DNA of 64,000 nt from Burkholderiales bacterium (GTDB lineage: Bacteria; Pseudomonadota; Gammaproteobacteria; Burkholderiales; Burkholderiaceae_C), in contig JANOXU010000267.1 in the NCBI GenBank assembly GCA_031418595.1, positions 1,848 to 65,847 on the forward strand. The letters are read 5' to 3'. Numbering within the stretch: position 1 is the first letter of the stretch; each line of letters opens with the position of its first letter. Shown one piece after another: positions 2,067-23,139 of the stretch. The notes beneath the pieces are model-generated. The model did not search any database and was not told the origin of the DNA. It saw only the letters and a program-made list of their open reading frames with translations. Made by a program: the position numbers and the translations under genes.

Positions 2067-2080
2067 GTTGAGTAAAACGC

Positions 2081-2434: not shown

Positions 2435-2444
2435 GGAGACTGCA

Positions 2445-3389: not shown

Positions 3390-3406
3390 AAAGCCCACGA
3401 ATCTTT

Positions 3407-3496: not shown

Positions 3497-3525
3497 AAAT
3501 CTTCATGAGTTTTCTCTTTCGTTAA

Positions 3526-3975: not shown

Positions 3976-3993
3976 CTATTCAGATAGGCGGAC

Positions 3994-6287: not shown

Positions 6288-6318
6288 CGGTTCATTCCAC
6301 TTCTTGATTCACCCCCAC

Positions 6319-7101: not shown

Positions 7102-7119
7102 CGAAAGACATCACCTACC

Positions 7120-7908
7120 ATGGCACTCAGCAAAGCCACCATCGCCGAACTGGCCGAACACCTGGAAGCCGCGCAACTGCAAGTGCGCGACGTGGTGAAG
7201 ATCACCGACGCCCACCCTGACATGGATTGGGTCGATGCGTATGACATTCAAGACGCCATTCGCGCGCGCAAGGAAGCGGCGGGCGACAAGTGCGCGGGCC
7301 TGAAGGCCGGCCTCACTTCGTTCGCCAAGATGAAGCAAATGGGCGTGGATGTGCCGTGCTTCGGCTTCATGAGCGCCAGCATGGCGCGCGCCGAAGGCAG
7401 CGAGATTCGTCTGGCTGATTTCATTCACCCCAAGGTGGAGGCCGAGATTTGCGTCGTCACCAAGGCGCCGCTGTACGGGCCGGGCTGCCACCTGGGCAAC
7501 GTGCTGGCGGCCATCGATTTCGTGCTGCCCGCGGTGGAGATCATCGACAGCCGCTACCGCGATTTCAAGTTCGATTTGAAGAGCGTGGTGGCCGACAACA
7601 CCTCGGCCGCGGGCTTCGTGGTCGGCGGGCGTTCGCGCGACTTGGCTGAACTTGATCTGCGCACCCTGGGCGTGTGCCTGGAAAAGAACGGCCAGGTCGT
7701 GGCCATGGCCGCCGGCGCTGCCGTGGTGGGCCACCCGGCGGCCGCGGTGGCCATGCTGGCCAACCACCTGGGTGCGCGCGGCCAGCATATTCCTGCGGGC
7801 AGTTTCATCATGACGGGTGGTGTGACCGAAGCCATTGCCGTGGCCAAGGGCGACCACATCAACGTGCGCTTTCAAGACCTGGGCAATGTGTCCATGCGCT
7901 TTGTCTGA
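7120..7908 (+). CDS. dmpH: 4-oxalocrotonate decarboxylase
   Basis: GLKAGLTSFAKMKQMGV, HPKVEAEI, IIDSRYRDFKFDLKSVVADNTS. Confidence 0.93.
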   Translation: MALSKATIAELAEHLEAAQLQVRDVVKITDAHPDMDWVDAYDIQDAIRARKEAAGDKCAGLKAGLTSFAKMKQMGVDVPCFGFMSASMARAEGSEIRLADFIHPKVEAEICVVTKAPLYGPGCHLGNVLAAIDFVLPAVEIIDSRYRDFKFDLKSVVADNTSAAGFVVGGRSRDLAELDLRTLGVCLEKNGQVVAMAAGAAVVGHPAAAVAMLANHLGARGQHIPAGSFIMTGGVTEAIAVAKGDHINVRFQDLGNVSMRFV

Positions 7909-7917
7909 TCGTTGCCC

Positions 7918-8724
7918 ATGACCACGCTCAACCACCAAGCCTTGGCCGGCCGGCGCGCGCTGGTCAGCGGTTCCACTTCAGGCATCGGTTATGCCATCGC
8001 ATGGGCCCTGGCTGAACAGGGCGCGGCCGTGGTGGTGAACGGCCGCGACGCAGCCCGCACCGAAGCCGCGGTGCAGCGTTTGCAGCAGGCCGTGCCGGGT
8101 GCCAGCTTGCACGGCGTGGCGGCTGATCTGGCCACGGCGGCGGGTGCCGATGCCGTGGTGCGTGCGGCGGGCGAGGTCGATGTCCTCATCAACAACCTTG
8201 GCATCTACGAACAGCGCGCCTTTGCCGATCAAACCGATGACGACTGGACGCGCCTGTTCAACGCCAACGTGATGAGCGGCGTGCGCCTCACACGCAGCTT
8301 GTTGCCGGCCATGAAGGCGCGTGGTTGGGGCAGGGTGGTGTTCATCTCCAGCGAGTCGGGCGTGAACCCACCCGGTGACATGTTGCACTACGGTGTCACC
8401 AAAGCCGCGCAAATTGCCCTGGCGCGCGGTCTGGCAGAGACCTGTGTGGCCTGCGGCGTGACGGTGAATTCCGTGCTGCCCGGGCCCACGCTCACCGAAG
8501 GCGCACAGGCCTACCTTGAAGGCGAGGCGGCGCGCGCCGGCACCAGCGTGGCCGAGGCGCAAGCGCAGTTCTTTCGCAACGCGCGGCCCACGTCACTCAT
8601 CCGCCGTTTCATCGCCCCCGAAGAAGTGGCCGCCTTGGTGGCGCACGTTTGCGGGCCGCTTTCTGGTGCCATTCATGGCGCAGCACTGCGGGTTGAAGGC
8701 GGCGTGGTGCGCAACATCCTCTAA
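7918..8724 (+). CDS. SDR-family oxidoreductase
   Basis: VSGSTSGIG Rossmann motif, LINNLGI, YGVTK catalytic motif, NSVLPGPT. Confidence 0.92.
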   Translation: MTTLNHQALAGRRALVSGSTSGIGYAIAWALAEQGAAVVVNGRDAARTEAAVQRLQQAVPGASLHGVAADLATAAGADAVVRAAGEVDVLINNLGIYEQRAFADQTDDDWTRLFNANVMSGVRLTRSLLPAMKARGWGRVVFISSESGVNPPGDMLHYGVTKAAQIALARGLAETCVACGVTVNSVLPGPTLTEGAQAYLEGEAARAGTSVAEAQAQFFRNARPTSLIRRFIAPEEVAALVAHVCGPLSGAIHGAALRVEGGVVRNIL

Positions 8725-8741
8725 CGTTCCAGGAGACTCGT

Positions 8742-8933
8742 ATGCCATTTGCCCAGATCTACATGCTCGAAGGCCGCACACCCGAACAGAAGAAAGCCGT
8801 GCTGGAGAAAGTGACGCAGGCCTTGATGGACGCCGTGGGCGCGCCGAAAGAAACCGTGCGGGTGTGGATTCATGAGATGCCCAAAGAGAACTGGGGCATT
8901 GGCGGGGTGAGTGCCAAGGAGCTGGGGCGATAG
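8742..8933 (+). CDS. dmpI: 4-oxalocrotonate tautomerase
   Basis: 63 aa; MPFAQIYMLEGRTPEQK with catalytic Pro1; RBS CAGGAG upstream. Confidence 0.95.
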   Translation: MPFAQIYMLEGRTPEQKKAVLEKVTQALMDAVGAPKETVRVWIHEMPKENWGIGGVSAKELGR

Positions 8934-8954
8934 CAAGGCGACGGGGTCAAGGCG

Positions 8955-9413
8955 ATGCCAACGATCTTCATCCTCAACGGCCCCAACCTCAACTTGCTGG
9001 GCGAGCGCGAGCCGCACATCTACGGCCATGCCACGCTGGCCGATGTGGAGCAACGCTGCCGTGCCGCCGCGCAGCGCCTGGGTTTGGCGCTGGAGTTTCG
9101 CCAGTCGAACCACGAAGGCGAGTTGATCGACTGGATACATGATGCCCGCCAGCGCGCCGCGGGCATCGTCATCAACCCCGCAGGCTATTCGTTCACTTCG
9201 GTGGCCATTCTTGATGCGCTGAAGACCTGCACGGTGCCCATCATTGAAGTGCACCTGAGCAACATTCACCGCCGCGAGGTGCAGTACCAGAGGTCGCTGG
9301 TTTCGCTGGCCGCGCGGGGTGTGATCTGCGGCCTGGGGCCGCTGGGCTACGAGCTGGCCCTGGCGGCCTTGGCGGAACAGCTTCAGGCGCCCAGCAGCGC
9401 GCAAACGGCCTGA
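8955..9413 (+). CDS. aroQ: Type II 3-dehydroquinate dehydratase
   Basis: [49 protein letters not shown]. Confidence 0.95.
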
Positions 9414-10450
9414 GTCACGTCAACCGTTGTGGCCTGGCCACCCAGGTCGCGCGTGTGCAGCTTCGGGTTGGCAGTGCAATGTTCAATGGCTTGCATCAAA
9501 CGTTGCGCGGCGCTGGCTTCGCCCAGGTGTTCGAGCATCATCACCGCTGACCAAAACGTGCCAATCGGGTTGGCCAGCCCCTGGCCCATGATGTCGAAGG
9601 CCGAGCCGTGGATGGGCTCGAACATGCTGGGGTAGCGGCGCTCGGGGTCGATGTTGCCGGTGGGCGCGATGCCCAAACTGCCGGCCAGCGCGGCGGCCAG
9701 GTCACTCAAGATGTCAGCGTGCAAATTGGTGGCCACCAGGGTGTCGAGCGTGGCCGGGCGGTTGACCATGCGCGCGGTGGCAGCGTCGACCAGTTCCTTG
9801 TCCCACTTCACCGCTGGAAATTCCTGGCTGATTTGCAGCGCGATCTCGTCCCACATCACCATGGCATGGCGCTGGGCGTTGCTCTTGGTGACGACGGTGA
9901 GCAGCTTGCGCGGGCGCGACTCGGCCAGGCGAAAGGCAAACCGCATGATGCGTTCGACGCCCGCGCGGGTCATGATGGAAACATCCGTCGCGGCTTCAAT
10001 CGGGTGGCCCTGGTGCACGCGCCCGCCCACGCCGGCGTATTCGCCTTCGGAGTTCTCGCGCACGATGATCCAGTTCAAGTCGTTCGGGCCGCAACGCTTC
10101 AACGGGCCGTCGATGCCGGGCAGGATGCGGGTGGGCCGCACGTTGGCGTATTGGTCGAAGCCCTGGCAGATTTTCAGGCGCAGGCCCCACAGGGTGATGT
10201 GGTCGGGGATGTGCGGGTCGCCCGCGCTGCCGAACAAGATGGCGTCTTTGTGGCGCAATGCAGAAAGGCCGTCGGCGGGCATCATCACGCCGTGCTGGCG
10301 GTAGAAGTCGCCGCCCCAATCGAAGTTCTCGAATTCGAAGCGAAAGCCCTGGCTTGCGGTGGCCAAGGCTTGCAGCACTTGCTGGCCGGCCGGAATCACT
10401 TCCTTGCCGATGCCGTCTCCCGGGATGGTGGCGATGGCGTAGGTCTTCAT
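9383..10450 (-). CDS. Tartrate / D-malate dehydrogenase (decarboxylating), beta-decarboxylating dehydrogenase family
   Basis: True start [18 protein letters not shown] at 10450; [33 protein letters not shown]. The 3' end overlaps aroQ convergently by 31 bp. Confidence 0.88.
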
Positions 10451-10561
10451 GGGTGTGCTGGGTTTGGGGTGAGGTTGGTGCAACTGTACGGTGCGCAGCA
10501 TGCAGAATGCCGCGTCACGGCTGCGCCGGCATGAAGCTGGCCTGCCACACCGGAGACGTGA

Positions 10562-11521
10562 ATGCTGCTGCGCCGAGGTTTGATCTGCTTGCTTGGCTTG
10601 GCGGCGATGTTGCCCGCGCTGGCCCAGCCCATTTGGCCCGACAAGCCGATCCGCATCGTGCTGCCATTCCCGCCCGGCGGCCCCAGCGACATGGTGATTC
10701 GGCTGGCGGCAGAAAAGATGCAGGCCAGCCTGAAACAGACCATCGTCATCGACAGCAAACCCGGCGCCGGTGGCAACCTGGGCACGGCTGAAGTGGCGCG
10801 CGCTGCACCCGACGGTTATACGTGGCTGTGGGGCACCGACACGCTGGTCACCGTGAACCCGCATGTCTACAAGCAGCTCGGCTTCAAGGTGGATGAATTG
10901 CTGCCGGTGAGCATTGGCACGCAGTTCGGCCAGACCTTGGTGTGCCACCCCGGCGTGGGCGTGAAGACACTGGCCGAGTTGATCGCCAAGGCCAAGGCCG
11001 GCCCCATGAGTTATGCCTCGGGCGGCAACGGCGTGCCAGGGCATTTGTCGATGGAGCTGCTGCTGCACACGGCTGGCTTCGAGATGACCCATGTGCCGTA
11101 CAAAGGCCCGGCGCCGGCCACGCAAGACGTGATCGGCGCCCAGGTGCACTGCGGCCTGCTGGCCGGGCCCACCGTGCTGCCACATGTGCGCGCCGGCCGG
11201 CTGGTGGCGTTGGCTGTGTCCAGCGCTGCGCGCTCGCCCACGCTGCCCGATGTGCCCATCATGGCCGAAGCGGGTGTGCCGGGATTGCGCGCTGAGTTTG
11301 CGTTGGTGATGTTTGCGCCGCGCGGTGTGGCTGATTCGATCGTTAACCGGTTTCGGCAAGCTTTTGTTGATGCACTCAAGGCGCCTGATGTGGCTGACAA
11401 GCTGAAAGCCAGCGATCAGGCCGTGGTGGGCAGCACTCCGGCCGATGCGGCGCGCGTGTTGGCGGCTGATTCACACAAATGGGGCGAGGTGGCGCGGCGC
11501 ATCAGGCTCGGGCTTGATTGA
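10562..11521 (+). CDS. Bug/TctC tripartite tricarboxylate transporter substrate-binding protein
   Basis: Signal peptide; WPDKPIRIVLPFPPGGPSD, SKPGAGGNLG, HVPYKGPAPA. Confidence 0.93.
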   Translation: MLLRRGLICLLGLAAMLPALAQPIWPDKPIRIVLPFPPGGPSDMVIRLAAEKMQASLKQTIVIDSKPGAGGNLGTAEVARAAPDGYTWLWGTDTLVTVNPHVYKQLGFKVDELLPVSIGTQFGQTLVCHPGVGVKTLAELIAKAKAGPMSYASGGNGVPGHLSMELLLHTAGFEMTHVPYKGPAPATQDVIGAQVHCGLLAGPTVLPHVRAGRLVALAVSSAARSPTLPDVPIMAEAGVPGLRAEFALVMFAPRGVADSIVNRFRQAFVDALKAPDVADKLKASDQAVVGSTPADAARVLAADSHKWGEVARRIRLGLD

Positions 11522-11760
11522 GCCAACAGCAGACCGTTCTTCGATCATGCGCGCTCATCACGCCAAGCGACGCAAGGTCATTGGCCTGTCGGCCAAGGCT
11601 GTCCGCAAAGGTTGTCCGCGAAGTTTGTTGACAAGCGGCGCCATGGCGCGCAGGCTGGCGCGCAGGCGGTGGAGCAACACCCGCTTGGAGTTGCTGCCGA
11701 ACCGCCGCGTCGCGCGGCCGCGGGTTTGACGCTGCCGGTGCGGGCCCAGGAGGTGGTCGA

Positions 11761-12774
11761 TTGATCAATGGTCGCCTGCAACACATCACCCTGTTTGCGC
11801 GCCGGGCGTGGTTGCTCGGCTCGACCACTTTGCTTTGGCTACCGTCAATGGTTGTGGCGCAGCAGCGCCCTTGGCGCATTGCGTTGCTCGGCGGTACGGC
11901 CGGCGATGCCATCGCCTGGCGTAATTTCATCGACCCGCTGCGCCGCGGGCTGGCTGAACTGGGCCACTTGGAGGGGCGCCACTACACACTGGATCTGCGC
12001 TGGGCCGAAGGCCAACCCGAACGCTTGCCCGGCCTGCTGGCCGAGTTGGTGGCCGCGCGACCTGACATGCTTGTGACCATCGGCCCACGCCCAGCGCAAC
12101 TGGCACGCGACAGCGCGGCAGGCCTGCGCGTGGTGGCCGTGGGCGTGGATGACCCGGTGGTGTCGGGCCTGGCCCAAGGCGTGGCACGGCCGGGCGGCCA
12201 CATCACGGGGCTGTCGACGGCGTTCGACGGCCTGGTGCAGAAGCGCTTGCAGTTGCTCAAGGACATCGTTCCCGGGGCGCGGCGCCTGGGCATCTTGATG
12301 AACCCCATCACCCTGCGGCGTGCCGTCCTGGAGGCTCAGTTGCCAGCGTGGCAAAGCGCCCTTGGCCTGGAGCTGCGTCTGTTTGAGGCCCGCGCCGCCG
12401 AGGACTTTGCGGCCGCCTTCGACGCCATGCTGCGCGAGCGCCTGCAAGGCGTCGTGATCCTGGCGGACGCTGTTTTCTGGGCCCACCGCCAGGCGCTGGG
12501 CACCTGGGTGGTCAAGCAGCGTTTGCCATCGGCCTGGGGCGGGCGCGACTACCTCGATGCCGGCGGCCTGGTGTCGTACCAGGGTGATTGGCCGGCTTTG
12601 TTTCGACGCGCCGCGACGCTGGTCGACAAGGTCTTGAAGGGCACGCCGCCGGGTGACATTCCCTTCGAGCAAGGCACCAAGCTCGAACTCGTGGTGAACC
12701 TCAAGGGTGCGCGGGCACTGGGCATCAAGGTACCGCAGTCTGTCTTGCTCAGTGCGGATGAGGTGATCGAATGA
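11761..12774 (+). CDS. Orphan ABC-type substrate-binding protein (COG2984/ABC_sub_bind family), copy 1; TTG start
   Basis: AGGAGG 7 nt before TTG; RR-containing leader; DPVVSGL..ARPGGHITG, KRLQLLKDIVP, GGLVSY, KVLKGTPPGDIPFEQ..KLELVVNLK, ADEVIE end. Confidence 0.85.
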   Translation: MINGRLQHITLFARRAWLLGSTTLLWLPSMVVAQQRPWRIALLGGTAGDAIAWRNFIDPLRRGLAELGHLEGRHYTLDLRWAEGQPERLPGLLAELVAARPDMLVTIGPRPAQLARDSAAGLRVVAVGVDDPVVSGLAQGVARPGGHITGLSTAFDGLVQKRLQLLKDIVPGARRLGILMNPITLRRAVLEAQLPAWQSALGLELRLFEARAAEDFAAAFDAMLRERLQGVVILADAVFWAHRQALGTWVVKQRLPSAWGGRDYLDAGGLVSYQGDWPALFRRAATLVDKVLKGTPPGDIPFEQGTKLELVVNLKGARALGIKVPQSVLLSADEVIE

Positions 12775-13769
12775 AGCGCCGTCATTGCCTGGCGCTGCCC
12801 GCTTGGGGCCTGGCCGCAAGCGCCGCGGCACAAACCATTTCGGCGCCCACGGCAGCCCGCCCGCGCCGCGTGGCCGCACTCAATACCGGGCCGCAGAGCT
12901 ATACCGAGTGGTCGCGTTACTTCATCGAACTGCTGCGCCTGGGCGGGCATGAGTTGGGCCGCAACCTGGTGGCCGACGCGCGCTACGCCGAGGGCGAGAT
13001 GGCGCGCCTGCCGGCCCTGGCTGATGAGTTGGTGGCGGGCCAGCCCGAAGTCATCGTGGCCTTCGGCAACCAGGCGGTGGCCGCGGCGCAGCGGGCCACC
13101 ACGCGCATCCCCATCGTCATGAGTTTTTGCGCTGACCCGGTGAGCGCGGGCTTCGTGCACAGCCTGGCCCGCCCGGGCGGCAATATCACGGGTGCGGTGT
13201 GGGTCTCGGCCGAACTTGCCGGCAAGACCCTGTCCATGCTGAAAGAGGCCGTGCCGCGCGCGCGCCGCGTGGCCGCGCTGGGCAGCGCCATCGACCCCAC
13301 GCTGCGGCCCTACCGCGAGGCACTGGGGCGCGCCGCCGCGGCGCTGGGCATCACCCTGGTGCCTGTGGCTGTGGAGCGCCCGGCCGATGTGCTGCCGGCG
13401 CTGGAACGCTTGGCCGCGGCACTGCCTGGTTCGATGCCCGATGCGCTGTACGTGGCCTCAGACGGCGTGACCGAAACCCGCAACAGCGAAATCGCCGCCT
13501 TTGCGCTGCGCCACAAGTTGCCCACACTAGGTGTTTCACCAAGCCTGGTGCAGGCCGGCGCCTTGCTGTATTACGGGCCCGATGTGCGCGAGGTGATCGA
13601 GCGCACGGCGAGCTTCGTCAACCGCATCCTGCATGGCGCCGCACCCGCCGAGTTGCCAGTGGAGCAGCCCACGCGCTTCAGGTTCATCGTCAATCAAAGG
13701 TCGGCCAAGGCGATGGGCTTGGTGCTGCCACAGACCGTTCTGCTGCGGGCAGACGAGATCATTGAATGA
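12771..13769 (+). CDS. Orphan ABC-type substrate-binding protein (COG2984 family), copy 2
   Basis: MKRR leader; DPVSAGFVHSLARPGGNITG, GALLYYGPD, RILHGAAPAELPVEQPTRF, ADEIIE end; ATGA overlap. Confidence 0.88.
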   Translation: MKRRHCLALPAWGLAASAAAQTISAPTAARPRRVAALNTGPQSYTEWSRYFIELLRLGGHELGRNLVADARYAEGEMARLPALADELVAGQPEVIVAFGNQAVAAAQRATTRIPIVMSFCADPVSAGFVHSLARPGGNITGAVWVSAELAGKTLSMLKEAVPRARRVAALGSAIDPTLRPYREALGRAAAALGITLVPVAVERPADVLPALERLAAALPGSMPDALYVASDGVTETRNSEIAAFALRHKLPTLGVSPSLVQAGALLYYGPDVREVIERTASFVNRILHGAAPAELPVEQPTRFRFIVNQRSAKAMGLVLPQTVLLRADEIIE

Positions 13770-13802
13770 CACGCCAGCACGCCTTTGAAGAGGTGACACC
13801 GC

Positions 13803-14354
13803 ATGGACGCACTCACCGCCATCCACACGCGCCGCACCATCCGGGCCTACACCGAACAGCCGCTGGCCCGCGATGTGTTGCAGCGTCTGCTCTACGCTGC
13901 CGTGCAGGCGCCCACGCCACCGGTGAGTGGCCCCTCGCCTTGGCAGATAGGCGTGATCGAGGGCGCGGCGCGCCTGGCAGGCTATGGCAGCCGGGCCAAG
14001 CAATATGCCTTCGACCACCAACCGCAAGGCCAGCGCTGGGAGTGGGCCTCGCGCCCGGGCTTCGAGGTGTTCTGGAACGCCCCGGCCGTGGTGCTGTTCT
14101 GTGCCCGCGAGGGCAACCCCGAGGCGCCGTTCGACTGCTGCCGCGCGGCGCAGAACCTGCTCATCGCCGCGCAGGCGTTGGGCCTGGGCAGTTGCTGGGT
14201 GGGTGCGCCCCTGCCCTGGTTGGCCAGCCCGGGCGTGCAGCAAGAATTGGGGCTGCCCGCCGGCCATGCAGTGGCCGCGGCGGTGCTGGTGGGGCACCCG
14301 GCCGAAGCCCCGGCCGGGCAACCGCGCCCGCCGCCCCAGGTGCTGTGGTGTTGA
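13803..14354 (+). CDS. Nitroreductase-family protein
   Basis: AIHTRRTIRAY, AVQAP, AAQNLLIAAQALGLGSCWVG; RBS GAGGTG. Confidence 0.9.
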   Translation: MDALTAIHTRRTIRAYTEQPLARDVLQRLLYAAVQAPTPPVSGPSPWQIGVIEGAARLAGYGSRAKQYAFDHQPQGQRWEWASRPGFEVFWNAPAVVLFCAREGNPEAPFDCCRAAQNLLIAAQALGLGSCWVGAPLPWLASPGVQQELGLPAGHAVAAAVLVGHPAEAPAGQPRPPPQVLWC

Positions 14355-14404
14355 CGGCTGGCGCTGAATTTTGCGGATACTGGCGCAGGCTTCGCGCCAC
14401 CCGG

Positions 14405-14490
14405 TTTGTACAGTTTGAATTTCACAAGTTCATTTTGTACAAATCGAACGAACAACAAGCCACCGCATGGGTGCACCACCCTGCGCGCGC
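14405..14490 (+). pseudogene. Degenerate copy of the upstream motif and first codons of the AAA-DUF4143 gene at 15666
   Basis: 14407-14443 vs 15629-15665 match at 30/37 nt; 14456-14488 vs 15678-15710 match at 25/33 nt. Translation LYKSNEQQATAWVHHPARA vs LYKVIERQATALVHQLARG. Confidence 0.7.
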
Positions 14491-14639
14491 CTGTGCCTGG
14501 CCATGGCTGGGCGGCGCCCGCTGACAACCACCACACTCCCGGCCATGCCAGACATGATTCGCCGCAGCGTCGCGCGTCAAGCTGTTGACCTGATGAACCC
14601 AAACATTGATCGACCGAACCAACGCCGGTAGCGGGCTGC

Positions 14640-15578
14640 ATGCTGACTCTTTTCGCGTTCCTCGCCCCCTACGCCGTGGCCGTTGTGGCGCACCCCCTGC
14701 TGGCGCGCCCCGGCCCATTCGCTGGCATCACCCTTGTAGCGGCGTGCTTGTTGATCTTCTGGGCGCCTTGGCTCATCACAGCAGACGCCCCCATGCTTCG
14801 GCTCATCGCCGCCATTTCGGCGGCCATGCTGGCCCTCAAAGTCATCGACGTGGCTGTCGACTTGAGGCTGGGGCACAAGGTCACCTTGAAAAGCCACCTT
14901 GAGTTCCTGGCCAATCCCTTCACCCACGTTCGCCGCAGTCTGGCGCTTGAGCGGCGCCCGCCGTTCGACGAGAACCTCTTGAATCTGGTGAAGGGCTCGG
15001 TCGGTTGCGGTCTAGGCGTGGTGCTGTTGATGCGGCTGTTCAACGTCGATTGGTCAAGCTCACACTTTCTTGTTGAACACATCAGCAAGGTCGTTGTGCT
15101 CATGGTGGCGATAGCCTGCGGCTTGAACGCCGCGGCCGCGGCCTGGCGCCTGAGCGGTGGCACCGCCCGCAGCTTCATGGACGCACCCCTGTGCGCACGC
15201 ACACCTGCAGACTTTTGGCGGCGCTACAACCGCAACGTGCAGCAGTTTTTCTGGCAGCACGTTTTCAAGGGCGGTGGCGGCCGGCACTCACCTGCGCGCA
15301 CGATGCTCCTTGTGTTTGCACTGTCGGCACTGCTTCATGAAGTGATCTTCTTTGCCGCGGTGGGACGGGTGCAGGGCTATCAAACCGCCTTTTTCACTTT
15401 GCAGGGCCTTGCCGCGGCCATGACCGCGCGCGTGCGAGTTCGAGGCTGGTTCGTGTTGCCCTGGATGGCGGGGACGCTGGTCTTTAACGCCCTGACGTCG
15501 GTGTTATTTTTTGCCAGCATCCACAGCGTTCTTCCCTTCTATTCTCAAGAGCTGCCGCAATGGTTGCGTGGCTGGTAG
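14640..15578 (+). CDS. Membrane-bound O-acyltransferase (MBOAT_2 / wax-synthase-like)
   Basis: Multiple TM helices; FMDAPLCARTPADFWRRYN and VFALSALLHE (catalytic His) motifs. Confidence 0.8.
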   Translation: MLTLFAFLAPYAVAVVAHPLLARPGPFAGITLVAACLLIFWAPWLITADAPMLRLIAAISAAMLALKVIDVAVDLRLGHKVTLKSHLEFLANPFTHVRRSLALERRPPFDENLLNLVKGSVGCGLGVVLLMRLFNVDWSSSHFLVEHISKVVVLMVAIACGLNAAAAAWRLSGGTARSFMDAPLCARTPADFWRRYNRNVQQFFWQHVFKGGGGRHSPARTMLLVFALSALLHEVIFFAAVGRVQGYQTAFFTLQGLAAAMTARVRVRGWFVLPWMAGTLVFNALTSVLFFASIHSVLPFYSQELPQWLRGW

Positions 15579-15665
15579 CTCCGCGGCGCGGTGGATGCAT
15601 GACGGTGCGGTTGGCCGGCCGCTTGATATGTACAATCTGAACATCATGAATTCATTTTGTACAAA

Positions 15666-16850
15666 GTGATCGAACGCCAAGCCACGGCCCTGGTGCACCA
15701 GCTCGCACGCGGCTTCCCTGTGGTGGCGCTGACCGGCCCGCGCCAGTCAGGCAAGACCACGCTGGCGCGCCAGGCCTTCCCTGCCAAGCCCTACCTCACG
15801 CTCGAAGACCTGGAAGTGCGCCAGCGTGCCGTGACCGACCCGCGGCAGTTCTTCGCCAACCTGCCGCACGGCGCGGTGCTCGATGAAGTGCAGCGCGCCC
15901 CGGAGCTGTTTTCCTATCTGCAAGGCGTGGTGGATGAGCGCGCACGCATGGGGCAGTTTGTGCTCACAGGCTCGCAGCAGTTCAGCTTGAACGAGCGCAT
16001 TTCGCAGTCACTGGCCGGCCGGGCGGCGCTGGTTCAACTGCTGCCGCTCTCAATGGCCGAGCTGCGGCAGGCTGAAGCGGCCGAACACAGCCTTGATGGC
16101 GTGCTGTGGCGCGGTGCCTACCCGGCCTTGTTCGATGGCCGGCGCGAGCTGCTTGAACCCGGGCACTGGCTGGCGGCCTACGTGGCCAGCTATGTGGAGC
16201 GCGATGTGCGGCAGCTGTTGGGGGTGGCCGACCTGAGCCTGTTCCGGCGCTTCGTGCTGAAGTGCGCAGCGCGCACCGGCCAGTTGCTGAACCTGGCTTC
16301 GCTGGCCAGCGATTGCGGCGTGAGCCACACCACGGCGCGGCGCTGGCTCACGGTGCTGGAGGCCAGCTACATCGTGCACTTGCTGCAGCCCCACCACCGC
16401 AACCTGGGCAAGCGGCTGGTGAAGATGCCCAAGCTGTATTTCCTGGACACCGGGCTGCTGTGCCACCTGCTGCGCATCGACAGCCCGCTGACCCTGGCCA
16501 CACACGCGCTGCGCGGCCCCATTTTCGAAAGCTGGGTCGTGGCTGAGACGCTGAAGCACCGTTTCAACCAAGGCCTGCAACCCGACCTGTTCTTCTGGCG
16601 CGACAACCACGGCACCGAAGTTGACTTGTTGTTCGAACACCAGGGCTTGATGCACGCGGTGGAAATCAAGTCCGGTGCCACCTTCGCGCCCGATTGGCTG
16701 GCCGCCTGCCAGCGCTGGCTGCGCTACGCCGGCAGCGCCGCGGCGGCGCCCACCGTGGTGTATGGGGGGCAAGACAGCTACACCGTTCAGGGTGTTCGGG
16801 TGCTGGCCTGGCGGCACATCGGTGCAGCGCAGGGCCAACAAGAGGCGTGA
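15666..16850 (+). CDS. AAA_14 ATPase with DUF4143 (PD-(D/E)xK-like) C-terminus; probable GTG start at 15666
   Basis: LTGPRQSGKTT Walker A, LDEVQRAP, LTGSQQF, KMPKLYFLDTG, FWRD..EVDL..VEIKS. Confidence 0.9.
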   Translation: MIERQATALVHQLARGFPVVALTGPRQSGKTTLARQAFPAKPYLTLEDLEVRQRAVTDPRQFFANLPHGAVLDEVQRAPELFSYLQGVVDERARMGQFVLTGSQQFSLNERISQSLAGRAALVQLLPLSMAELRQAEAAEHSLDGVLWRGAYPALFDGRRELLEPGHWLAAYVASYVERDVRQLLGVADLSLFRRFVLKCAARTGQLLNLASLASDCGVSHTTARRWLTVLEASYIVHLLQPHHRNLGKRLVKMPKLYFLDTGLLCHLLRIDSPLTLATHALRGPIFESWVVAETLKHRFNQGLQPDLFFWRDNHGTEVDLLFEHQGLMHAVEIKSGATFAPDWLAACQRWLRYAGSAAAAPTVVYGGQDSYTVQGVRVLAWRHIGAAQGQQEA

Positions 16851-16958
16851 ATTGCAGCAAGCGAGAATGCCCGCGATGTCTTCATGCCCAGCTACGGCAC
16901 ACCGCCTGAGTTTCGCCGCCCAGGCGGGTGTGCTGGCGCGTTCAACCCAGGTGATCGA

Positions 16959-19349
16959 ATGACCCGCCGCTTCGGCCTGTTCCCCAAGTACACGCTGCTC
17001 ATCATCGCCTTGGTGGGTTCGCTGCTGGTGGCCAGCGGCGCGGTGGGCCTGTACTTTTCGTACCACGAGAACCAAGACAGCCTGGTGGCCTTGCAGTTTG
17101 AAAAGGCCCAGGCCGCGGCCACGCGCATCGAGCAATATGTTTTGGACATCGAACAGCAGGTGAGCTGGACCGCGCTGCCCGGCATGGACGGCGGGGCCGA
17201 CCCGGCCGAACAGCGCCGCATCGATTACCTCAAGCTGCTGCGCCAGGCGCCGGCCATCACCGAAGCGGCCTGGATCGATGCCAAGGGCGTGGAACAACTG
17301 CGTGTGTCGCGCCTGGCCATGGATGCCGTGGGCCGCGGCACCGACTACTCTGCCGCCCCGATGTTCACTGTGCCCATGGCCGGCAAGGTGTTCCACAGCC
17401 CGGTGTCGTTTCGCAAAGAGACCGAGCCATACCTGACCGTGTCGCGCCGTGCCGGTCCAGGTGGGGGTGTGACGGCGGTCGACGTGAATTTGAAGTTCGT
17501 GTGGGATGTGGTGTCGCGCATCAAGATTGGTGATGCCGGCCTGGCTTATGTGGTGGACGACAAAGGCACGCTCATCGCCCACCCCGACATCAGCCTGGTG
17601 CTGCAAAAGAGTGACCTGTCCAAACTGCCACAGGTGGCCGTGGCCATCGGCGCGAAGGCGCAGCGCGCAGCGGGTGATGCTGCCATGGTGGAAAAGGCGC
17701 GCAATGCGCGCGGCGGGCGCGTCTTGGCCGCGCACGCCAGCATCCCCACGCTGGGCTGGACGGTGTTTGTCGAGTCGCCCCGCTCTGAAGCGTTCGCACC
17801 GTTGTACGAAACCCTGGCCCGCATGGCCCTGGTGCTGGCGCTGGGCCTGGGGCTGTCGGTGGTGGCCAGCTTCTTCTTGGCGCGCACGCTGGTGCGGCCG
17901 ATTCGCGCCATTCAAGACGGTGCTGAGCGTGTGGCGCAAGGCGATCTGGATCATCACATTGAAGTCAAGAGCCACGACGAGCTGCAAGTGTTGGCCGGTC
18001 AATTCAACCGCATGAGCAGCGAGCTGAAGGCTTCGTACACCGGCCTGGAACGCAAGGTCGATGCGCGCACGGCCGAGCTGCAAGAGGCGTTGGACTACCA
18101 AACCGCCAGCGGTGACGTGCTCAAGGTCATCAGCCAGTCTCCTGGCAGCGTCTTGCCCGTGTTCGAGGTGATCCTGGACAGCGCCAAACGCTTGTTCGGT
18201 GCGTCGATGGCAGCGGTGTTTCGTTACGAGGCGGGCAATGTGGCGATCGTGGCCACACGCAATTGGTCAGCACAGGCCATTGAAGACGCGAAGCGGCACT
18301 ATCCCGGGCCAGTGAACCCTGGCATGGTCACAGGCCGGGCGATCCTGACACGACAAGTGGTGAACCAGCCCGATGTGCGCAACGACCCCCACTACGACAA
18401 GGCCACCGCCGCGGCAGGCGGCTGGCGGCGCCTGCTGGCGGCGCCTTTGCTGCGCGAGGGCGAACCCATTGGCGTGATCACCGTTGCCTGGCACGAACCC
18501 GGCGACACGCCACCGCGCCAGCAGGCCTTGGTGCGCACCTTTGCCGACCAGGCCGTCATTGCCCTTGAAAACGCCCGCCTGTTCAACGACCTGCAAGACA
18601 AAACCCGCCAGCTCGAAGCCGCCAACCGCCACAAGAGCGAATTCCTGGCCAACATGAGCCACGAGTTGCGCACGCCGCTGAACGCCATCATCGGTTTTTC
18701 AGAAGCGCTCATCGAGAAGATGTTTGGCGACGTGAACGACAAGCAGATGGAATACCTGCAAGACATTCACTCCTCGGGCCACCACTTGCTCAGCCTGATC
18801 AACGACGTGCTCGACCTGAGCAAGATCGAGGCTGGGCGCATGGAGCTGGATCTGAGTTGTTTCGATCTGGGCCAGTTGCTGGAGCATTCCACCATGCTGG
18901 TGCGCGAACGTGCCCAGCGCCATGGCTTGGCATTAACCTTAGAGGTGAGCGACGACCTGGCCGAGTGGGTGGGCGACGCGCGCAAGATCAAGCAAGCGGT
19001 GGTGAACCTGCTCAGCAACGCGGTCAAGTTCACGCCCAACGGCGGGCGCGTCACGCTGCGCGCCCGGTTGCTCAACGAATGGCAGGGCCAGGGCGGCGCG
19101 TTTGCGCTGGTGTCGGTGCAAGACACCGGCGTGGGCATTGCACCGGGCGATCAGGAACTGGTGTTCGAGGAATTCCGCCAGGCCGGTGGCGACGTGCTGC
19201 GCAAGAGCGAAGGCACGGGGCTGGGCCTGGCGCTGGTGAAGCGCTTTGTGGAACTGCACGGCGGCAGCGTCACGCTGCAAAGCGCGCCGGGCGCCGGTTC
19301 CACCTTCAGCTTTGTGTTGCCGCAGCATGAATTGAAAGCCCTCCAATGA
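16959..19349 (+). CDS. Sensor histidine kinase: TM-periplasmic Cache-TM-HAMP-GAF-HisKA-HATPase
   Basis: Start MTRRFGLF at 16959; two hydrophobic helices; HAMP (DELQVLAGQFNRM); GAF (LAAPLLREGEPIGVI...FADQAVIALENARLF); H-box FLANMSHELRTP; N/G boxes NAVKFT, DTGVGI, GTGLGL. Confidence 0.92.
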   Translation: MTRRFGLFPKYTLLIIALVGSLLVASGAVGLYFSYHENQDSLVALQFEKAQAAATRIEQYVLDIEQQVSWTALPGMDGGADPAEQRRIDYLKLLRQAPAITEAAWIDAKGVEQLRVSRLAMDAVGRGTDYSAAPMFTVPMAGKVFHSPVSFRKETEPYLTVSRRAGPGGGVTAVDVNLKFVWDVVSRIKIGDAGLAYVVDDKGTLIAHPDISLVLQKSDLSKLPQVAVAIGAKAQRAAGDAAMVEKARNARGGRVLAAHASIPTLGWTVFVESPRSEAFAPLYETLARMALVLALGLGLSVVASFFLARTLVRPIRAIQDGAERVAQGDLDHHIEVKSHDELQVLAGQFNRMSSELKASYTGLERKVDARTAELQEALDYQTASGDVLKVISQSPGSVLPVFEVILDSAKRLFGASMAAVFRYEAGNVAIVATRNWSAQAIEDAKRHYPGPVNPGMVTGRAILTRQVVNQPDVRNDPHYDKATAAAGGWRRLLAAPLLREGEPIGVITVAWHEPGDTPPRQQALVRTFADQAVIALENARLFNDLQDKTRQLEAANRHKSEFLANMSHELRTPLNAIIGFSEALIEKMFGDVNDKQMEYLQDIHSSGHHLLSLINDVLDLSKIEAGRMELDLSCFDLGQLLEHSTMLVRERAQRHGLALTLEVSDDLAEWVGDARKIKQAVVNLLSNAVKFTPNGGRVTLRARLLNEWQGQGGAFALVSVQDTGVGIAPGDQELVFEEFRQAGGDVLRKSEGTGLGLALVKRFVELHGGSVTLQSAPGAGSTFSFVLPQHELKALQ

Positions 19350-19723
19350 GCCGCATCCTGATCGTTGAAGACAACGCCAAGAACATGAAGCTGGTGCGCG
19401 ATTTGCTGCAACACCGCGGCCATGAAACCCTGGAAGCCGAAGACGGTGAAACCGGGGTGGCGTTGGCCCTGGCGCAGCGGCCCGAGCTGATCCTGATGGA
19501 CATTCAGTTGCCCGACATCAGCGGCGTCACCGCGCTGGCGCGTATCCGCGAAGATGCCTCGCTCGACGCCGTGCCTTGTTTGGCCGTGTCAGCCTCGGTG
19601 ATGCCCGACGAGCAGCAACGTATCGTGGCCTCGGGCTTCGATGGCTTCATCGCCAAGCCAATTTCTTTGAAGACGTTCCTGGCGGCCGTGGACGCTGCAC
19701 TCAGCAACGGCCGCAAAGCATGA
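19346..19723 (+). CDS. Single-domain response regulator (DivK-like receiver)
   Basis: ILIVEDN, LILMDIQLP, GFDGFIAKP; ATGA overlap with the kinase. Confidence 0.93.
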   Translation: MSRILIVEDNAKNMKLVRDLLQHRGHETLEAEDGETGVALALAQRPELILMDIQLPDISGVTALARIREDASLDAVPCLAVSASVMPDEQQRIVASGFDGFIAKPISLKTFLAAVDAALSNGRKA

Positions 19724-20847
19724 CTGACGCAGCAGGTGGCCACATCCTCGTCGTTGACGACGTGGAAAAGAACGCCCGTCTGCTGGCCGATGTGCTCACT
19801 GCCAAAGGCTTTCGCACGCGCACCGCGCTGTCGGGCGAGGCTGCGCTGCAAGACGTGGCGGCGCACCCGCCCAGCCTGATCTTGCTCGACGTGATGATGC
19901 CGGGCATCAGCGGCTACGACGTCTGCCGCACGCTGCGCGCCGACCCGGCGCATGCCGTGTTGCCCATCGTGCTGGTCACGGCACTCGACCCGAGCACGGA
20001 GCGCGTGAAAGGCCTGGAGGCGGGTGCTGACGACTTCTTGAGCAAGCCGGTGAATCAAGCCGAACTGCTGGCGCGCGTGCGTTCGCTGTTGCGCATCAAG
20101 ACGCTGTATGACGAAGTGCAGCGCCAAAAGGCCGAGCTGCAGCAATGGAACCAGTCGCTCGAACAGCGTGTGGCCGATGGCGTGCGGCAACTCGAACAAG
20201 TGGGCCGCCTGAAGCGCTTTTTCTCACCGCAACTGGCCGACATGCTGGTGCAAGGCGGCGACGAACTGCTCAAGACGCACCGCCGCGAGATTTGCGTCGT
20301 GTTCATCGACTTGCGCGGCTTCACCACCTTCACCGAACGTGCTGAACCCGAAGAGGTGATGGAGTTGCTGCACAGCTACCACCAGGCCATGGGTCAGATC
20401 GTGGTGGCGCACAGCGGCACGCTGGAGCGTTTTGCCGGCGACTCGGTGATGGTGTTTTTCAACGACCCCGTGCCCATCGACAAGCCGGCCGAAGCCGCCG
20501 TGCGCATGGCCTTGCAAATGCAGCAGGCCTTCACGCCGTTGGCCCAGGCGTGGGCCAAGCGCGGCTTTGATTTGGCGCTGGGCTGCGGCATCGCCCAGGG
20601 CTACGCCACGCTGGGTGCGATTGGCTTCGAGGGCCGCTGGGACTATGCCGCCATCGGCAACGTCACCAACATGGCCGCGCGCTTGTGCGGCGAGGCCGGC
20701 GGCGGCCAGGTGCTGGTCGACCGCAAGGCCATGGCCCACATTGAAGACCTGGTGCATGCCGCGCCGGTGGGGCCGCTGGTGCTGAAGGGGTTGGCGCAAC
20801 CGGTGATGGCGTTTGCCGTGTCGGAACTGAAACCATCGAACTCATGA
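19720..20847 (+). CDS. Receiver domain fused to class III adenylate/guanylate cyclase
   Basis: Start MTDAAG at 19720; REC (LVVDD, LLDVMMP, FLSKP); cyclase VFIDLRGFT, RFAGD, IGNVTNMAARL. Confidence 0.92.
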   Translation: MTDAAGGHILVVDDVEKNARLLADVLTAKGFRTRTALSGEAALQDVAAHPPSLILLDVMMPGISGYDVCRTLRADPAHAVLPIVLVTALDPSTERVKGLEAGADDFLSKPVNQAELLARVRSLLRIKTLYDEVQRQKAELQQWNQSLEQRVADGVRQLEQVGRLKRFFSPQLADMLVQGGDELLKTHRREICVVFIDLRGFTTFTERAEPEEVMELLHSYHQAMGQIVVAHSGTLERFAGDSVMVFFNDPVPIDKPAEAAVRMALQMQQAFTPLAQAWAKRGFDLALGCGIAQGYATLGAIGFEGRWDYAAIGNVTNMAARLCGEAGGGQVLVDRKAMAHIEDLVHAAPVGPLVLKGLAQPVMAFAVSELKPSNS

Positions 20848-21890
20848 GAGACAGACTGCAGATGAACGACGAAAGTGCTGTGCGCGCAGGCGGGTCAGAG
20901 CGGGTCGCGGTGCAGCCCGATGTGCTGCGCCGCGGCCTGGCCTTTTGTGCGCTGGCCTGGCCTGCCTGGCCGGCTGGCGCGCAGCAGCCCGGGCGCATCT
21001 ATCGGCTGGGTTGGCTCAGCAGCACCGAACGCCAGGAGCCCTATGCCTTGGCCATGGTGCAGCGTTTGCGCGAGTTGGGCTTTGTCGAAGGCGGCAACCT
21101 GAGCATCGAATTCAGGCTGGTGCCGGCACGCGAAGACGCCTTTTTGCGCATGGCCGAGGAGCTGGGCCGGCTGAATTGCGACGCGCTCTTTGCGTCGGGC
21201 CATCAGATCGGTCTGAGCGCCGCGTTGCAAGGCACGCAGCGCATTCCCATCATCACCGTGGCCAACGACATCGACCCCGTGGCCGCCGGCTTTGTGGCCA
21301 GCCTGGCGCGGCCCGGCGGGCGCATCACGGGTGTTTCGCAACTCATGAGCGAGTTGCCGGGCAAGCGCCTGGAAGTGGTGCGCGAGCTGCTGCCGCGGGC
21401 GCGCCGCGTGGCCGTGTTGGCCGACGCGGTGACCAAGCCGCAGTTGCAGGTCACTCGCGCTGCCGCGGCCAAACTCGGCTTTGAACTCGTGGTGCATGAA
21501 TTCGATGCCCCGCCCTACGACCTGCCCGCTGCCTTTGGCCGTTTCAAGCGGGCGGGCGCTGAAGTGATGGTGTCGCTGGCATCGGCTTTCTTCGCGGTGC
21601 AGCGCAAGGCCATCGTTGCGCTGGCCACCCAACACCGCTTGCCGGGCATCTTCCCGAATGCAGTGTGGGCAGACGCGGGTGGTTTGATGTCGTACGGGCC
21701 GAACTTCTTGGTGTCATACCGGCGTGCCGCCGACATTCTGGCCAAGGTCTTCAACGGCGCCGACCCGGCCGTGCTGCCGATGGAGCAGCCCCAGGTCATC
21801 GAGACGGTGCTCAACCTTGGCGTGGCCAAGCGCATGGGTGTGGCCATTCCACAGGCCATCGCGCTGCGGGCGGATCGGGTGGTCGAGTGA
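20844..21890 (+). CDS. Orphan ABC-type substrate-binding protein (COG2984 family), copy 3 (start 20844 or 20862)
   Basis: RRGLAF leader; YRLGWL, DPVAAGFVASLARPGGRITG, KRLEVVRELLP, GGLMSYGP, ADRVVE end; ATGA overlap with the cyclase. Confidence 0.88.
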   Translation: MRDRLQMNDESAVRAGGSERVAVQPDVLRRGLAFCALAWPAWPAGAQQPGRIYRLGWLSSTERQEPYALAMVQRLRELGFVEGGNLSIEFRLVPAREDAFLRMAEELGRLNCDALFASGHQIGLSAALQGTQRIPIITVANDIDPVAAGFVASLARPGGRITGVSQLMSELPGKRLEVVRELLPRARRVAVLADAVTKPQLQVTRAAAAKLGFELVVHEFDAPPYDLPAAFGRFKRAGAEVMVSLASAFFAVQRKAIVALATQHRLPGIFPNAVWADAGGLMSYGPNFLVSYRRAADILAKVFNGADPAVLPMEQPQVIETVLNLGVAKRMGVAIPQAIALRADRVVE

Positions 21891-21990
21891 AGGCCGCCCG
21901 GGGCAATGGCGGGCCGTTGCGCGCGTGCTCGTCGGCGCTTGCCCTTGGGCGCCCGGCGCGGGCAAGTTCTTGACCTTGAAAGGCAGCGCG

Positions 21991-23139
21991 ATGAAATGTG
22001 TCCTGGCCGGCTCCCGGTTCTTCGGCGCCTCGGTGTTGCAGGCGCTGCATCGGGAGCCGGGCATTGAATTCGCCGGCGTGGTGGTGCCCGCGGCCGACGA
22101 CCGCCTGGCCCTGGCCGCGCACACCCTGGGCGTGCCGGTGCACGTGCTGGCCAACCCGAAGCTGGTGCCCGGCGGGGCGATGCCTGAGGGCACCGAGCTG
22201 ATCATCGCCGCACATACGCACGCGCGGGTGAGCAATGAAGCGCTGCAACGTTCCAGATTAGGCGGCGTGGGCTACCACCCTTCGCTGCTGCCGCGCCACC
22301 GCGGCATTGCAGCCGTGGAGTGGACGGTGCTGCAAGGTGACGCCATTGCCGGGGGCTCGGTCTACCACCTGGCTGATGGCTGGGACAAAGGCGCCATCGC
22401 GGCGCAGGAATGGTGCTTCGTGCTGCCCGGCGAAGGCGCGCGCGAACTGTGGGAACGTGCCCTGGCGCCGCTGGGCCTGAAGCTGCTGGCGCAGGTGGTG
22501 CAACACGCGCGCTTGCAGGGTGCGCTGCCGGCGCAGATGCAGGACGAACGCTTTGCCACCAAGGCACCGCTGATGCGCAAGGCCGTGCTGCTGACGGAAG
22601 ACGCGCCGGCCGCGACCACGGCGCTGGTCGTCACCATCATGGGGCCTGACCGGCCAGGCATCGTGAGCCAGCTTGCCAGCCTGGCGCAGCGCCATGGCGC
22701 CAACTGGGCGGCCAGCCGCATGTCCAACCTGGCGGGCGAATTCGCCGGCATGGTGCACCTCGACGTGCCGCGCGACCACGCCGCCGCGCTGGCCGCCGCG
22801 CTGCGTGCGCTGCAAGGGCCTGGCCTGCGGGTGCAGGTGGCGCAGGGTGCGGGCTCGGCCGCGCCGGCCGGGCAGCGTGGCGTGTCGCTGGAACTGGTGG
22901 GCGAAGACCGGGTGGGCATCGTCAGCACGCTGGCGCGCCTGCTGGCCGAACGCGGCGTCAGCATCGAGCACATCCACACTGAAATCATCAATCCGCATGG
23001 CAGTGCCGCCGCCGCTTTCAAGGTAGTGGCCCATCTGCTGGTGCCCGCGGCCATGAGCAACGATGCGTTGCGCGAAGACCTGCAAGGCCTGGCGCGAGCG
23101 ATGATGCTGGACATCGCCCTGGGCGAGCACCAGCCCTGA
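21991..23139 (+). CDS. Formyltransferase/10-formyl-THF hydrolase-like domain fused to two C-terminal GcvR-like ACT domains
   Basis: Start MKCVLAG at 21991; GYHPSLLPRHRG...DGWDKG; ACT1 VTIMGPDRPGIV...MSNLAGEFAG; ACT2 LELVGEDRVGIV. Confidence 0.8.
   Translation: MKCVLAGSRFFGASVLQALHREPGIEFAGVVVPAADDRLALAAHTLGVPVHVLANPKLVPGGAMPEGTELIIAAHTHARVSNEALQRSRLGGVGYHPSLLPRHRGIAAVEWTVLQGDAIAGGSVYHLADGWDKGAIAAQEWCFVLPGEGARELWERALAPLGLKLLAQVVQHARLQGALPAQMQDERFATKAPLMRKAVLLTEDAPAATTALVVTIMGPDRPGIVSQLASLAQRHGANWAASRMSNLAGEFAGMVHLDVPRDHAAALAAALRALQGPGLRVQVAQGAGSAAPAGQRGVSLELVGEDRVGIVSTLARLLAERGVSIEHIHTEIINPHGSAAAAFKVVAHLLVPAAMSNDALREDLQGLARAMMLDIALGEHQP

Follow-up and report, generated by a model that had tools for sequence, protein, structure and literature searches.

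The window analyzed here is a 64,000-nucleotide stretch of DNA from a Burkholderiales bacterium (assembly GCA_031418595.1, contig JANOXU010000267.1, positions 1,848 to 65,847 of the forward strand). It contains three genes for solute-binding proteins (SBPs) of Pfam family PF04392 and, in the same cluster, genes for a membrane-bound sensor histidine kinase, a lone receiver, and a receiver-cyclase protein. An earlier note on this DNA, made from the sequence alone, had proposed that the three SBPs serve signaling. The features of the locus, in window coordinates, are as follows.

11761..12774, + strand: SBP1, array-type PF04392 binding protein (Pfam E 3.8e-34); the TTG start at 11761 is uncertain
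12771..13769, + strand: SBP2, array-type PF04392 binding protein (Pfam E 3.7e-38), in ATGA overlap with SBP1
13803..14354, + strand: nitroreductase-family gene (PF00881, E 1.3e-23), first of an intervening block and outside the signaling module
14396..14492, + strand: decayed 97-nt duplicate of the AAA_14-DUF4143 5' region, with 73% identity to 15618-15714 (repeat search)
14640..15578, + strand: MBOAT-like membrane protein gene of the intervening block (PF03062, E 8e-9)
15657..16850, + strand: AAA_14-DUF4143 ATPase gene of the intervening block (Pfam)
16915..16962, + strand: 3'-end remnant of a binding-protein gene (nucleotide comparison with paralogue 3' ends)
16959..19349, + strand: sensor histidine kinase with transmembrane (TM) helix, dCache_1, TM helix, HAMP, GAF, HisKA, and HATPase_c (Pfam)
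19346..19723, + strand: lone single-domain receiver (PF00072, E 2.7e-23), ATGA-coupled on both sides
19720..20847, + strand: receiver, helical linker, and class III nucleotide cyclase (Pfam and alignments to solved cyclases)
20844..21890, + strand: SBP3, array-type PF04392 binding protein (Pfam E 2.3e-22), ATGA-coupled to the cyclase gene

The translations show ATGA overlaps at four junctions (SBP remnant/kinase, kinase/receiver, receiver/receiver-cyclase, and receiver-cyclase/SBP3), as the earlier note had reported for every junction between 16959 and 21890, and the coupling of the third SBP gene to the end of the kinase-receiver-cyclase chain is seen directly in the overlap at 20844/20847. 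This last junction is retained in a close relative (L026), the kinase of which shows an 88% match to the window kinase in the best segment; the frame there stays open across a 6-nt in-frame indel. The gene and domain content given in the earlier note stood up to reanalysis, but the 3.2 kb of unrelated genes (nitroreductase, MBOAT-like, and AAA_14-DUF4143) that separate SBP2 from the kinase had been overlooked. A 252-amino-acid open reading frame (ORF) at 13766-14524 that is ATGA-coupled to SBP2 was not counted as a gene because it has no Pfam match, is a low-complexity frame rich in Arg, Gly, Ala, and Pro, and overlaps the nitroreductase gene. A promoter and terminator scan of positions 11300-22400 gave no candidate above the shuffled background.

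Relatives have a binding-protein gene immediately next to the kinase gene. In the window, the frame whose TGA overlaps the kinase ATG reads ...AGVLARSTQVIE (short form ...VLARSTQVIE) up to that stop. The 60 nt ending at or just past the kinase start are identical to paralogue 3' ends at up to 36 of 60 positions, compared with a best score of 32 and a 99.9th percentile of 31 for 2000 random 60-mers. When the DNA preceding the kinase was searched with a profile, no significant match to an SBP remnant appeared; the significant match came from direct DNA comparison with the paralogue 3' ends. The most economical reading of these sequences is that a further SBP gene once preceded the kinase and was truncated on arrival of the block ending in the DUF4143 gene. 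A DUF4143 gene 76% identical to the window copy (blastp against the genome ORFs) lies inside another SBP array, at 53792-54985 of contig C105, and this gene has therefore landed in SBP arrays at least twice; it may be mobile or may target such arrays. The decayed 5' copy at 14396-14492 lies 1.2 kb upstream of the DUF4143 gene, and both copies of the region carry TGTACA palindromes.

Binding proteins, their paralogues, and transporter genes

All three SBPs were assigned to PF04392, with scores of 118.7, 131.9, and 80.0 bits for SBP1, SBP2, and SBP3, respectively (curated cutoff, 25.9), and they share 32% to 36% pairwise identity, which bears out their description as three paralogous COG2984 binding proteins. 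In each leader, an RR pair precedes a hydrophobic segment that ends with AQ(Q): ...FARRAWLLGSTTLLWLPSMVVAQQ in SBP1, MKRRHCLALPAWGLAASAAAQ in SBP2, and ...VLRRGLAFCALAWPAWPAGAQQ in SBP3. The leaders had been called twin-arginine-like, and "Tat-like" is a fair term for the RR present in all three; at related loci, 68 of 86 leaders have RR within the first 25 residues, but the strict S/T-R-R-x-hydrophobic-hydrophobic pattern occurs in only 9 of the 86. The C termini (ADEVIE, ADEIIE, and ADRVVE) agree with the AD(E/R)(V/I)(I/V)E pattern noted previously. This type of end fits 80 of 100 relatives, and 89 of 100 stop exactly one residue past the domain, so that the ADEVIE-type end is a good marker of the subfamily. 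The idea that this end is a free tail that docks in the Cache pocket is weakened by the AlphaFold2 model of SBP3, in which the terminal residues form a beta-strand (pLDDT ~95) and are therefore a structural part of the fold.

The SBP3 model (pLDDT 95.7) has the complete two-lobed type I periplasmic binding-protein fold in its closed form, with TM-scores of 0.86 to 0.90 to CD0873, VC_1101, and SP1069 (entries 3LKV, 3LFT, and 6HNI). In a comparison of 68 array-type sequences, conservation is highest over the final 50 residues and lowest in the second lobe; the motifs DPV..G.V.SLARPGG.(I/V)TG and GGLMSYG are retained. A tree groups the array-type proteins in a single supported clade (SH-aLRT 96) that excludes both a divergent type on contig C7 and the transporter-linked proteins of genomes G023 and G036. 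Solved PF04392 members bind Tyr, Phe, or Trp (PMC6816091, PMC10443332). Structural alignments of SBP3 with these members give only ~19% to 22% identity, and at ~20% identity the two published specificity residues could not be mapped reliably; no ligand is proposed. Four open frames of 742 to 1123 amino acids that seemed to fuse PF04392 to signaling domains were rejected: what precedes the SBP domain in each is meaningless out-of-frame sequence, and the SBP begins with a Met and a leader of its own. The N-terminal extension of SBP3 is poorly conserved, and within it, after the ATGA-coupled start and before the signal peptide, lies a GC-rich hairpin of 16 pairs (20901-20939). This hairpin might modulate SBP3 translation, or the true SBP3 start might be downstream of it.

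The genome (5.5 Mb in 275 contigs, 98% complete) holds ~27 PF04392 matches (28 at E <= 0.001). Most of these form tandem arrays: contig C68 carries ten or eleven genes, C105 about eight, and C108 and the window three each. Two of the arrays touch contig ends. The nearest paralogue of SBP2 is on C105 (47% identity). Identity among the paralogues of the genome has a median of 38%, and some are recent near-copies, up to 86% identical. Several dispersed copies (on C105, C108, and C66) are orthologous in the tree to members of a kinase-linked array in the related genome G014, and they therefore come from the same pool as the kinase-linked copies.

Three of these regions have neighbors of their own. 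The C68 array (233-13033) is gapless and on one strand and follows a gene that, by a look at its sequence, resembles a class V aminotransferase; no signaling gene was seen near this array. On C108 (58232-65335), three SBP genes converge on a gene for a 1357-amino-acid protein with an N-terminal class III cyclase domain (weak PF00211 match) and a long remainder that by eye resembles an NTPase and a repeat region. On C7 (9386-12555), the divergent PF04392 gene directly follows a 700-amino-acid gene that by eye encodes an N-terminal membrane sensor region and a major facilitator superfamily (MFS) transporter, and a hybrid kinase gene and a REC-GGDEF-EAL-like gene are nearby.

Fold and copy number also bear on the possibility that the SBPs are negative regulators or stress reporters, unliganded or unfolded protein holding the kinase off as CpxP does with CpxA, and the array serving as a means of dosage. 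Accessory periplasmic kinase inhibitors are known (CpxP/CpxA; PMC4160245), and near-copies of up to 86% identity would fit dosage. The median identity of 38% and the poor conservation of the second lobe fit diversified ligand binding better, however, and the SBP3 model keeps the whole closed-form binding-protein fold; we regard such a role as improbable.

Canonical PF04392 proteins serve an ATP-binding cassette (ABC) importer (PMC9382623), and as the cognate partner set of a COG2984 protein we took a single COG4120 permease and a single COG1101 ATPase (TrpXYZ type). PF02653 permeases and ABC ATPases are encoded in the window at 41060-44897, 19 kb away, but these are a livHMGF-type pair of pairs and not the COG4120 and COG1101 proteins, in line with the earlier statement that the window has no cognate permease or ATPase. 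Such a transporter elsewhere in the genome had been named beforehand as an outcome that would speak against a sensory role, and it was looked for and not found. None of the 61 PF02653 permease matches in the genome lies within 10 kb of any of the ~27 PF04392 genes. There are ~30 pairs of Liv-type permease genes, and four internal loci with a single permease are of the sugar type or Liv type by their neighboring ORFs. The COG4120 permease of G036, a relative from the same order, had a best match of E 8e-5 over part of its length when compared with the whole genome, and the G036 ATPase, used for the COG1101 side, retrieved only generic ABC ATPases with ~31% identity. As a positive control, the same probes recognized in G036 a textbook operon of SBP, single permease, single ATPase, and SBP. 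A TrpXYZ-type importer, encoded together with an SBP, was thus not found in this genome.

The array-type SBPs share family, fold, and conserved motifs with the proteins of TrpXYZ (Streptococcus), CD0873 (Clostridioides difficile), VC_1101, and SP1069. They differ from the canonical importer proteins in having no COG4120/COG1101 partner in the genome and in forming a separate clade, and their RR signal peptides and exact ADEVIE-type C termini are both lacking in the canonical proteins of G036.

Linkage of the binding proteins to the kinase across genomes

A search with the window kinase against 40 relatives identified full-length orthologues in G007, G014, and G016, which belong to the same genus, and in G037, which belongs to a different family; G002 has a partial one. 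The module is recognizable at each of the four full-length loci. G016 has eight SBP genes followed by kinase, receiver, and receiver-cyclase genes; G007 has the order SBP, kinase, SBP, receiver, receiver-cyclase, SBP, SBP; G014 has eight or more SBPs, kinase, receiver, receiver-cyclase, SBP, SBP; and G037 has SBP, kinase, receiver, receiver-cyclase.

The SBP subfamily follows the kinase in its distribution as well. Among 41 relatives, at least three PF04392 genes occur only in G000, G007, G014, G016, and G037 (27, 13, 15, 8, and 5 matches, respectively, at E <= 1e-10), and these are exactly the five genomes with a full kinase orthologue (5/5 versus 0/36). By our calculation (1 / C(41,5)), the chance of such a coincidence is ~1 in 750,000. 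All eight PF04392 copies of G016 are those of the array in front of the kinase. The relatives without the kinase have one or two PF04392 genes, the products of which score 54 to 168 bits on the array-type profile, versus 250 to 322 bits; these proteins have C-terminal extensions of 6 to 26 residues instead of the exact ADEVIE-type end and belong to other subtypes.

In a wide survey, an alignment of these kinases was compared with 185,579 species genomes. This retrieved more than 576 relatives, and the best 80 loci were analyzed by scoring their six-frame ORFs with profiles built from the present genome; divergent SBPs may therefore be undercounted. The 80 loci are from Burkholderiales (Variovorax, Ramlibacter, Rubrivivax, Rhodoferax, and Aquabacterium), Alphaproteobacteria (Bradyrhizobium, Hyphomicrobiales, and Rhodospirillales), Methylomirabilota/Rokubacteria, Binatia, Deltaproteobacteria, Verrucomicrobia, and Eisenbacteria. 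The core of a Cache-GAF(n)-kinase, a receiver, and a receiver-cyclase is near-constant, the cyclase being present in 50 of the 53 loci with enough downstream sequence. Array-type SBPs, in one to eight copies, lie no more than 3 kb from the module in 47 of 63 judgeable loci belonging to at least six phyla, so that the enrichment of this neighborhood, the absence of which had been set out beforehand as evidence against a sensory role, was indeed observed. Across the 80 loci, no permease gene accompanies the arrays; the rare ABC permeases or ATPases nearby are those of separate, unrelated Liv-type clusters 2 to 5 kb away. The position of the SBP genes varies: they are found upstream, between kinase and receiver (L046), between receiver and receiver-cyclase (L042), downstream, or in divergent orientation (Variovorax). 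Linkage that survives such rearrangement is a classic sign of functional coupling.

The other 16 judgeable loci have no SBP gene within 3 kb. They are scattered over the Cache tree, requiring at least ten changes of state, and near-identical Cache domains occur with an adjacent SBP gene (L073) and without one (L103). The genes upstream of the SBP-less kinases are mutually unrelated, and an alternative conserved partner was accordingly rejected. These loci would be expected if the kinase, receiver, and cyclase were self-sufficient and the SBPs were unrelated neighbors kept by tandem duplication or in a shared mobile region, and there is a precedent for adjacent but unlinked sbp and kinase genes (PMC11113362). 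Several observations make this explanation very unlikely, the least probable of those considered here. The co-occurrence of subfamily and kinase among the relatives is perfect; all 16 genomes with an SBP-less kinase locus carry PF04392 genes elsewhere (3 to 58 copies); the linkage persists in at least six phyla despite changes of gene order; and the ATGA coupling is conserved.

Kinase, receivers, and cyclase

The kinase has the residues expected of a two-component protein, including the HisKA H-box (SHELRTPLN) and the N (NLLSNAVKFTP), G1 (DTGVGI), F (FEEFRQ), and G2 (GTGLGLAL) motifs of the HATPase domain. The lone receiver has its phospho-acceptor Asp in LILMDIQLP, along with an IAKP motif, and the receiver of the receiver-cyclase protein has the corresponding LILLDVMMPG and LSKP motifs, so that the Asp, Thr(Ser), and Lys positions of a receiver are all present. 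The latter domain is very close to REC1 of PleD (E 1e-40 for that stretch). The number of GAF domains varies greatly among the kinases adjoining the module: there is one in the window kinase, and up to ~25 separate GAF matches per locus were seen in neighboring kinases of other genomes (L100, L071, and L028).

An AlphaFold2 model of the kinase ectodomain (pLDDT 90.6) shows a dCache fold with flanking helices. Its best Foldseek matches are dCache sensor domains, including 3LIB, 3LI9, PscC, PctC, and Tlp3. The ectodomain resembles both the sensor domains of kinases (3LIB and 3LI9) and the domains of chemoreceptors that bind their ligands directly (PctA/B/C, Tlp3, and Mlp24), and the fold alone therefore cannot tell whether the kinase requires a binding protein.

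The cyclase domain (20260-20847) has its closest match in that of Pseudomonas aeruginosa CyaB (3R5G; E 3e-35). It was aligned with CyaB, Cya2 (2W01), and CyaC (1WC0/1WC1), and conservation was counted in 59 orthologues. Both metal-binding Asp residues and the transition-state Asn are invariant (59/59), and the Arg is present in 58 of 59, all of which are common to the class IIIb cyclases CyaB and CyaC (Spirulina); by these residues, the cyclase is probably active. Where CyaB and CyaC have the adenine-specifying Lys and the guanylate cyclase Cya2 has Glu, 48 orthologues have Arg and 8 have His; where the former have Thr and Cya2 has Gly, 58 have Ala. The pair is therefore Lys/Thr in CyaB and CyaC, Glu/Gly in Cya2, and Arg/Ala in the window cyclase. 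Neither the adenylate pair (Lys with Asp/Thr) nor the guanylate pair (Glu with Cys/Ser/Gly) is present, having been replaced by Arg(/His) with Ala, and no product is therefore assigned. The genome has 12 matches to cyclase domains and 16 to cyclic nucleotide (cNMP)-binding domains. No Crp-type gene was found in the window or within 60 kb of the module, and the nearest cNMP_binding gene on the contig lies ~66 kb downstream.

With this pathway in place, the order of cause and effect could also be reversed. The SBPs could be products of the pathway, the kinase sensing its ligand directly and the cyclic nucleotide controlling scavenging SBPs that serve an unlinked noncanonical carrier (Liv-type ABC, MFS, or other) or hold nutrients in the periplasm. 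The likeness of the dCache model to direct ligand binders would suit this arrangement, as would the location of most copies away from the kinase, e.g., the eleven behind the C68 aminotransferase gene. Possible carriers exist in the ~30 Liv-type permease pairs and in the apparent sensor-MFS fusion that adjoins the distant PF04392 type on C7, and SBP3 keeps the full fold of the aromatic amino acid importer proteins. However, the module has no DNA-binding output, and a Crp-type gene is absent within 60 kb. Coregulation would leave unexplained why SBP genes sit inside the signaling operon, in the kinase/receiver and receiver/receiver-cyclase gaps, in several phyla and why the subfamily is missing from every relative without the kinase; nor do the arrays travel with a permease, unrelated Liv clusters aside. 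We consider this explanation unlikely, although it is the strongest of the three alternatives.

A proposed sensory cassette and its relation to known systems

On this evidence we favor, with a probability of roughly 60%, the reading that the locus represents a partly disrupted copy of a widespread sensory cassette in which transporter-less SBPs signal via a dCache kinase to a receiver-cyclase. The recurrence of the SBP-kinase-cyclase partnership across phyla makes it most likely that the binding proteins act as signal inputs, and the earlier proposal that they are sensory inputs rather than transport components is supported at the level of comparative genomics. A distinct PF04392 subfamily of periplasmic SBPs would have lost its ABC importer. 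Its members would bind small molecules in the periplasm and, once liganded, dock on the dCache domain of the kinase, from which the signal would reach the HisKA/HATPase core by way of HAMP and GAF. The kinase would then phosphorylate the receiver-cyclase, and phosphorylation would most likely drive dimerization via the helical linker, creating the dimeric class III active site that makes the cyclic nucleotide. The lone receiver may compete for phosphoryl groups, as a sink or a second branch. With many diverged paralogues, ~27 in the genome and three of them here, a single kinase would receive reports on a broader set of ligands. The intact folds of the two models, a binding-protein fold in SBP3 and a dCache ectodomain in the kinase, count in favor of this reading, as the same folds are paired in HptA/HptS, a complex reviewed together with the role of dCache modules in PMC8050422.

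Several findings weigh against it. The dCache model is similar to domains that bind small molecules directly (PctA/B/C, Tlp3, and Mlp24), and the kinase may therefore need no binding protein; tests of neighboring sbp and kinase genes in P. aeruginosa revealed no interaction (PMC11113362). To these are added the 16 of 63 judgeable loci without an SBP gene within 3 kb. In the present genome, only 3 of ~27 copies, plus one remnant, are at the kinase, the largest array (C68) being behind an aminotransferase gene instead, and the module in the window is itself interrupted by the insertion between SBP2 and the kinase.

The closest known systems are LuxP/LuxQ (autoinducer 2 sensing in Vibrio), HptA/HptS (Staphylococcus aureus HptRSA), and TorT/TorS (Escherichia coli), in each of which a transporter-less periplasmic SBP is likewise encoded beside a membrane histidine kinase. 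Their kinases have tandem-PAS/dCache-type ectodomains regulated by the SBP, and the window kinase also has a dCache ectodomain between two TM helices; a conserved SBP-kinase gene linkage and a periplasmic Cache-type domain between two TM helices are thus found here as in those systems. TorT is itself a distant structural match of SBP3 (3O1I chain D; TM-score, 0.61). The differences are threefold. The SBP family with the proposed sensory role here is PF04392. Each known system has a single SBP partner, whereas the loci described here have from 1 to at least 8 diverged paralogues, with tens per genome. The known outputs are a phosphorelay or a DNA-binding regulator, whereas the output here is a receiver-cyclase. 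What is new with respect to LuxPQ, HptAS, and TorTS is the SBP family, the multiparalogue arrays, and an output through a receiver-cyclase in which the specificity pair is unusual. On the output side, PleD (REC-REC-GGDEF) offers a close relative of the receiver, in its REC1 domain.

SBP expansion far beyond the number of transporters is also known for the orphan Bug/TctC receptors of Bordetella and Comamonadaceae, and one of these, BctC, signals to the sensor kinase BctE (PMC9602780). Those receptors are of family PF03401, BctC also feeds a transporter, and a conserved kinase-cyclase operon is not described there. In the literature searched, PF04392 is discussed only as an importer component or adhesin, and the module is undescribed; a review of SBP-dependent kinase systems does not list the family (PMC8050422). 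Only about ten SBP-activated kinases have been characterized, and the reason why some bacteria have tens of transporter-less SBP genes has been posed as an open question for the TctC family (PMC9602780).

The linkage and co-occurrence tie an SBP subfamily to one kinase family and so make it testable whether many SBPs report to one receptor. If this is confirmed, PF04392 would join the families of cosensors, and periplasmic nutrient sensing would be linked to cyclic nucleotide signaling in poorly studied soil lineages (Rokubacteria, Binatia, and Comamonadaceae). The results also point to a clade of cyclases whose substrate-specifying pair is unusual. The module is present in cultured strains of Variovorax and Bradyrhizobium, and laboratory study is therefore feasible. 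A bolder extension, which we put forward as speculative and rather doubtful, is a phylum-spanning "sensor battery" of soil and freshwater bacteria in which dozens of diversified, transporter-less SBPs, from genes at the kinase locus and from others outside it, would converge on one dCache kinase via their highly conserved C-terminal 50 residues and the cyclase with the Arg/Ala pair would make something other than plain cAMP or cGMP or would take several nucleotides.

The region preceding the locus in the window contains an aromatic meta-cleavage-like cluster (1008-9404), with genes for a ferredoxin reductase, an extradiol dioxygenase-type protein, an aldehyde dehydrogenase, an alpha/beta hydrolase, two FAA-hydrolase-family proteins, and a short-chain dehydrogenase/reductase (SDR). 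A TctC-family receptor gene lies at 10562-11521, upstream of SBP1.

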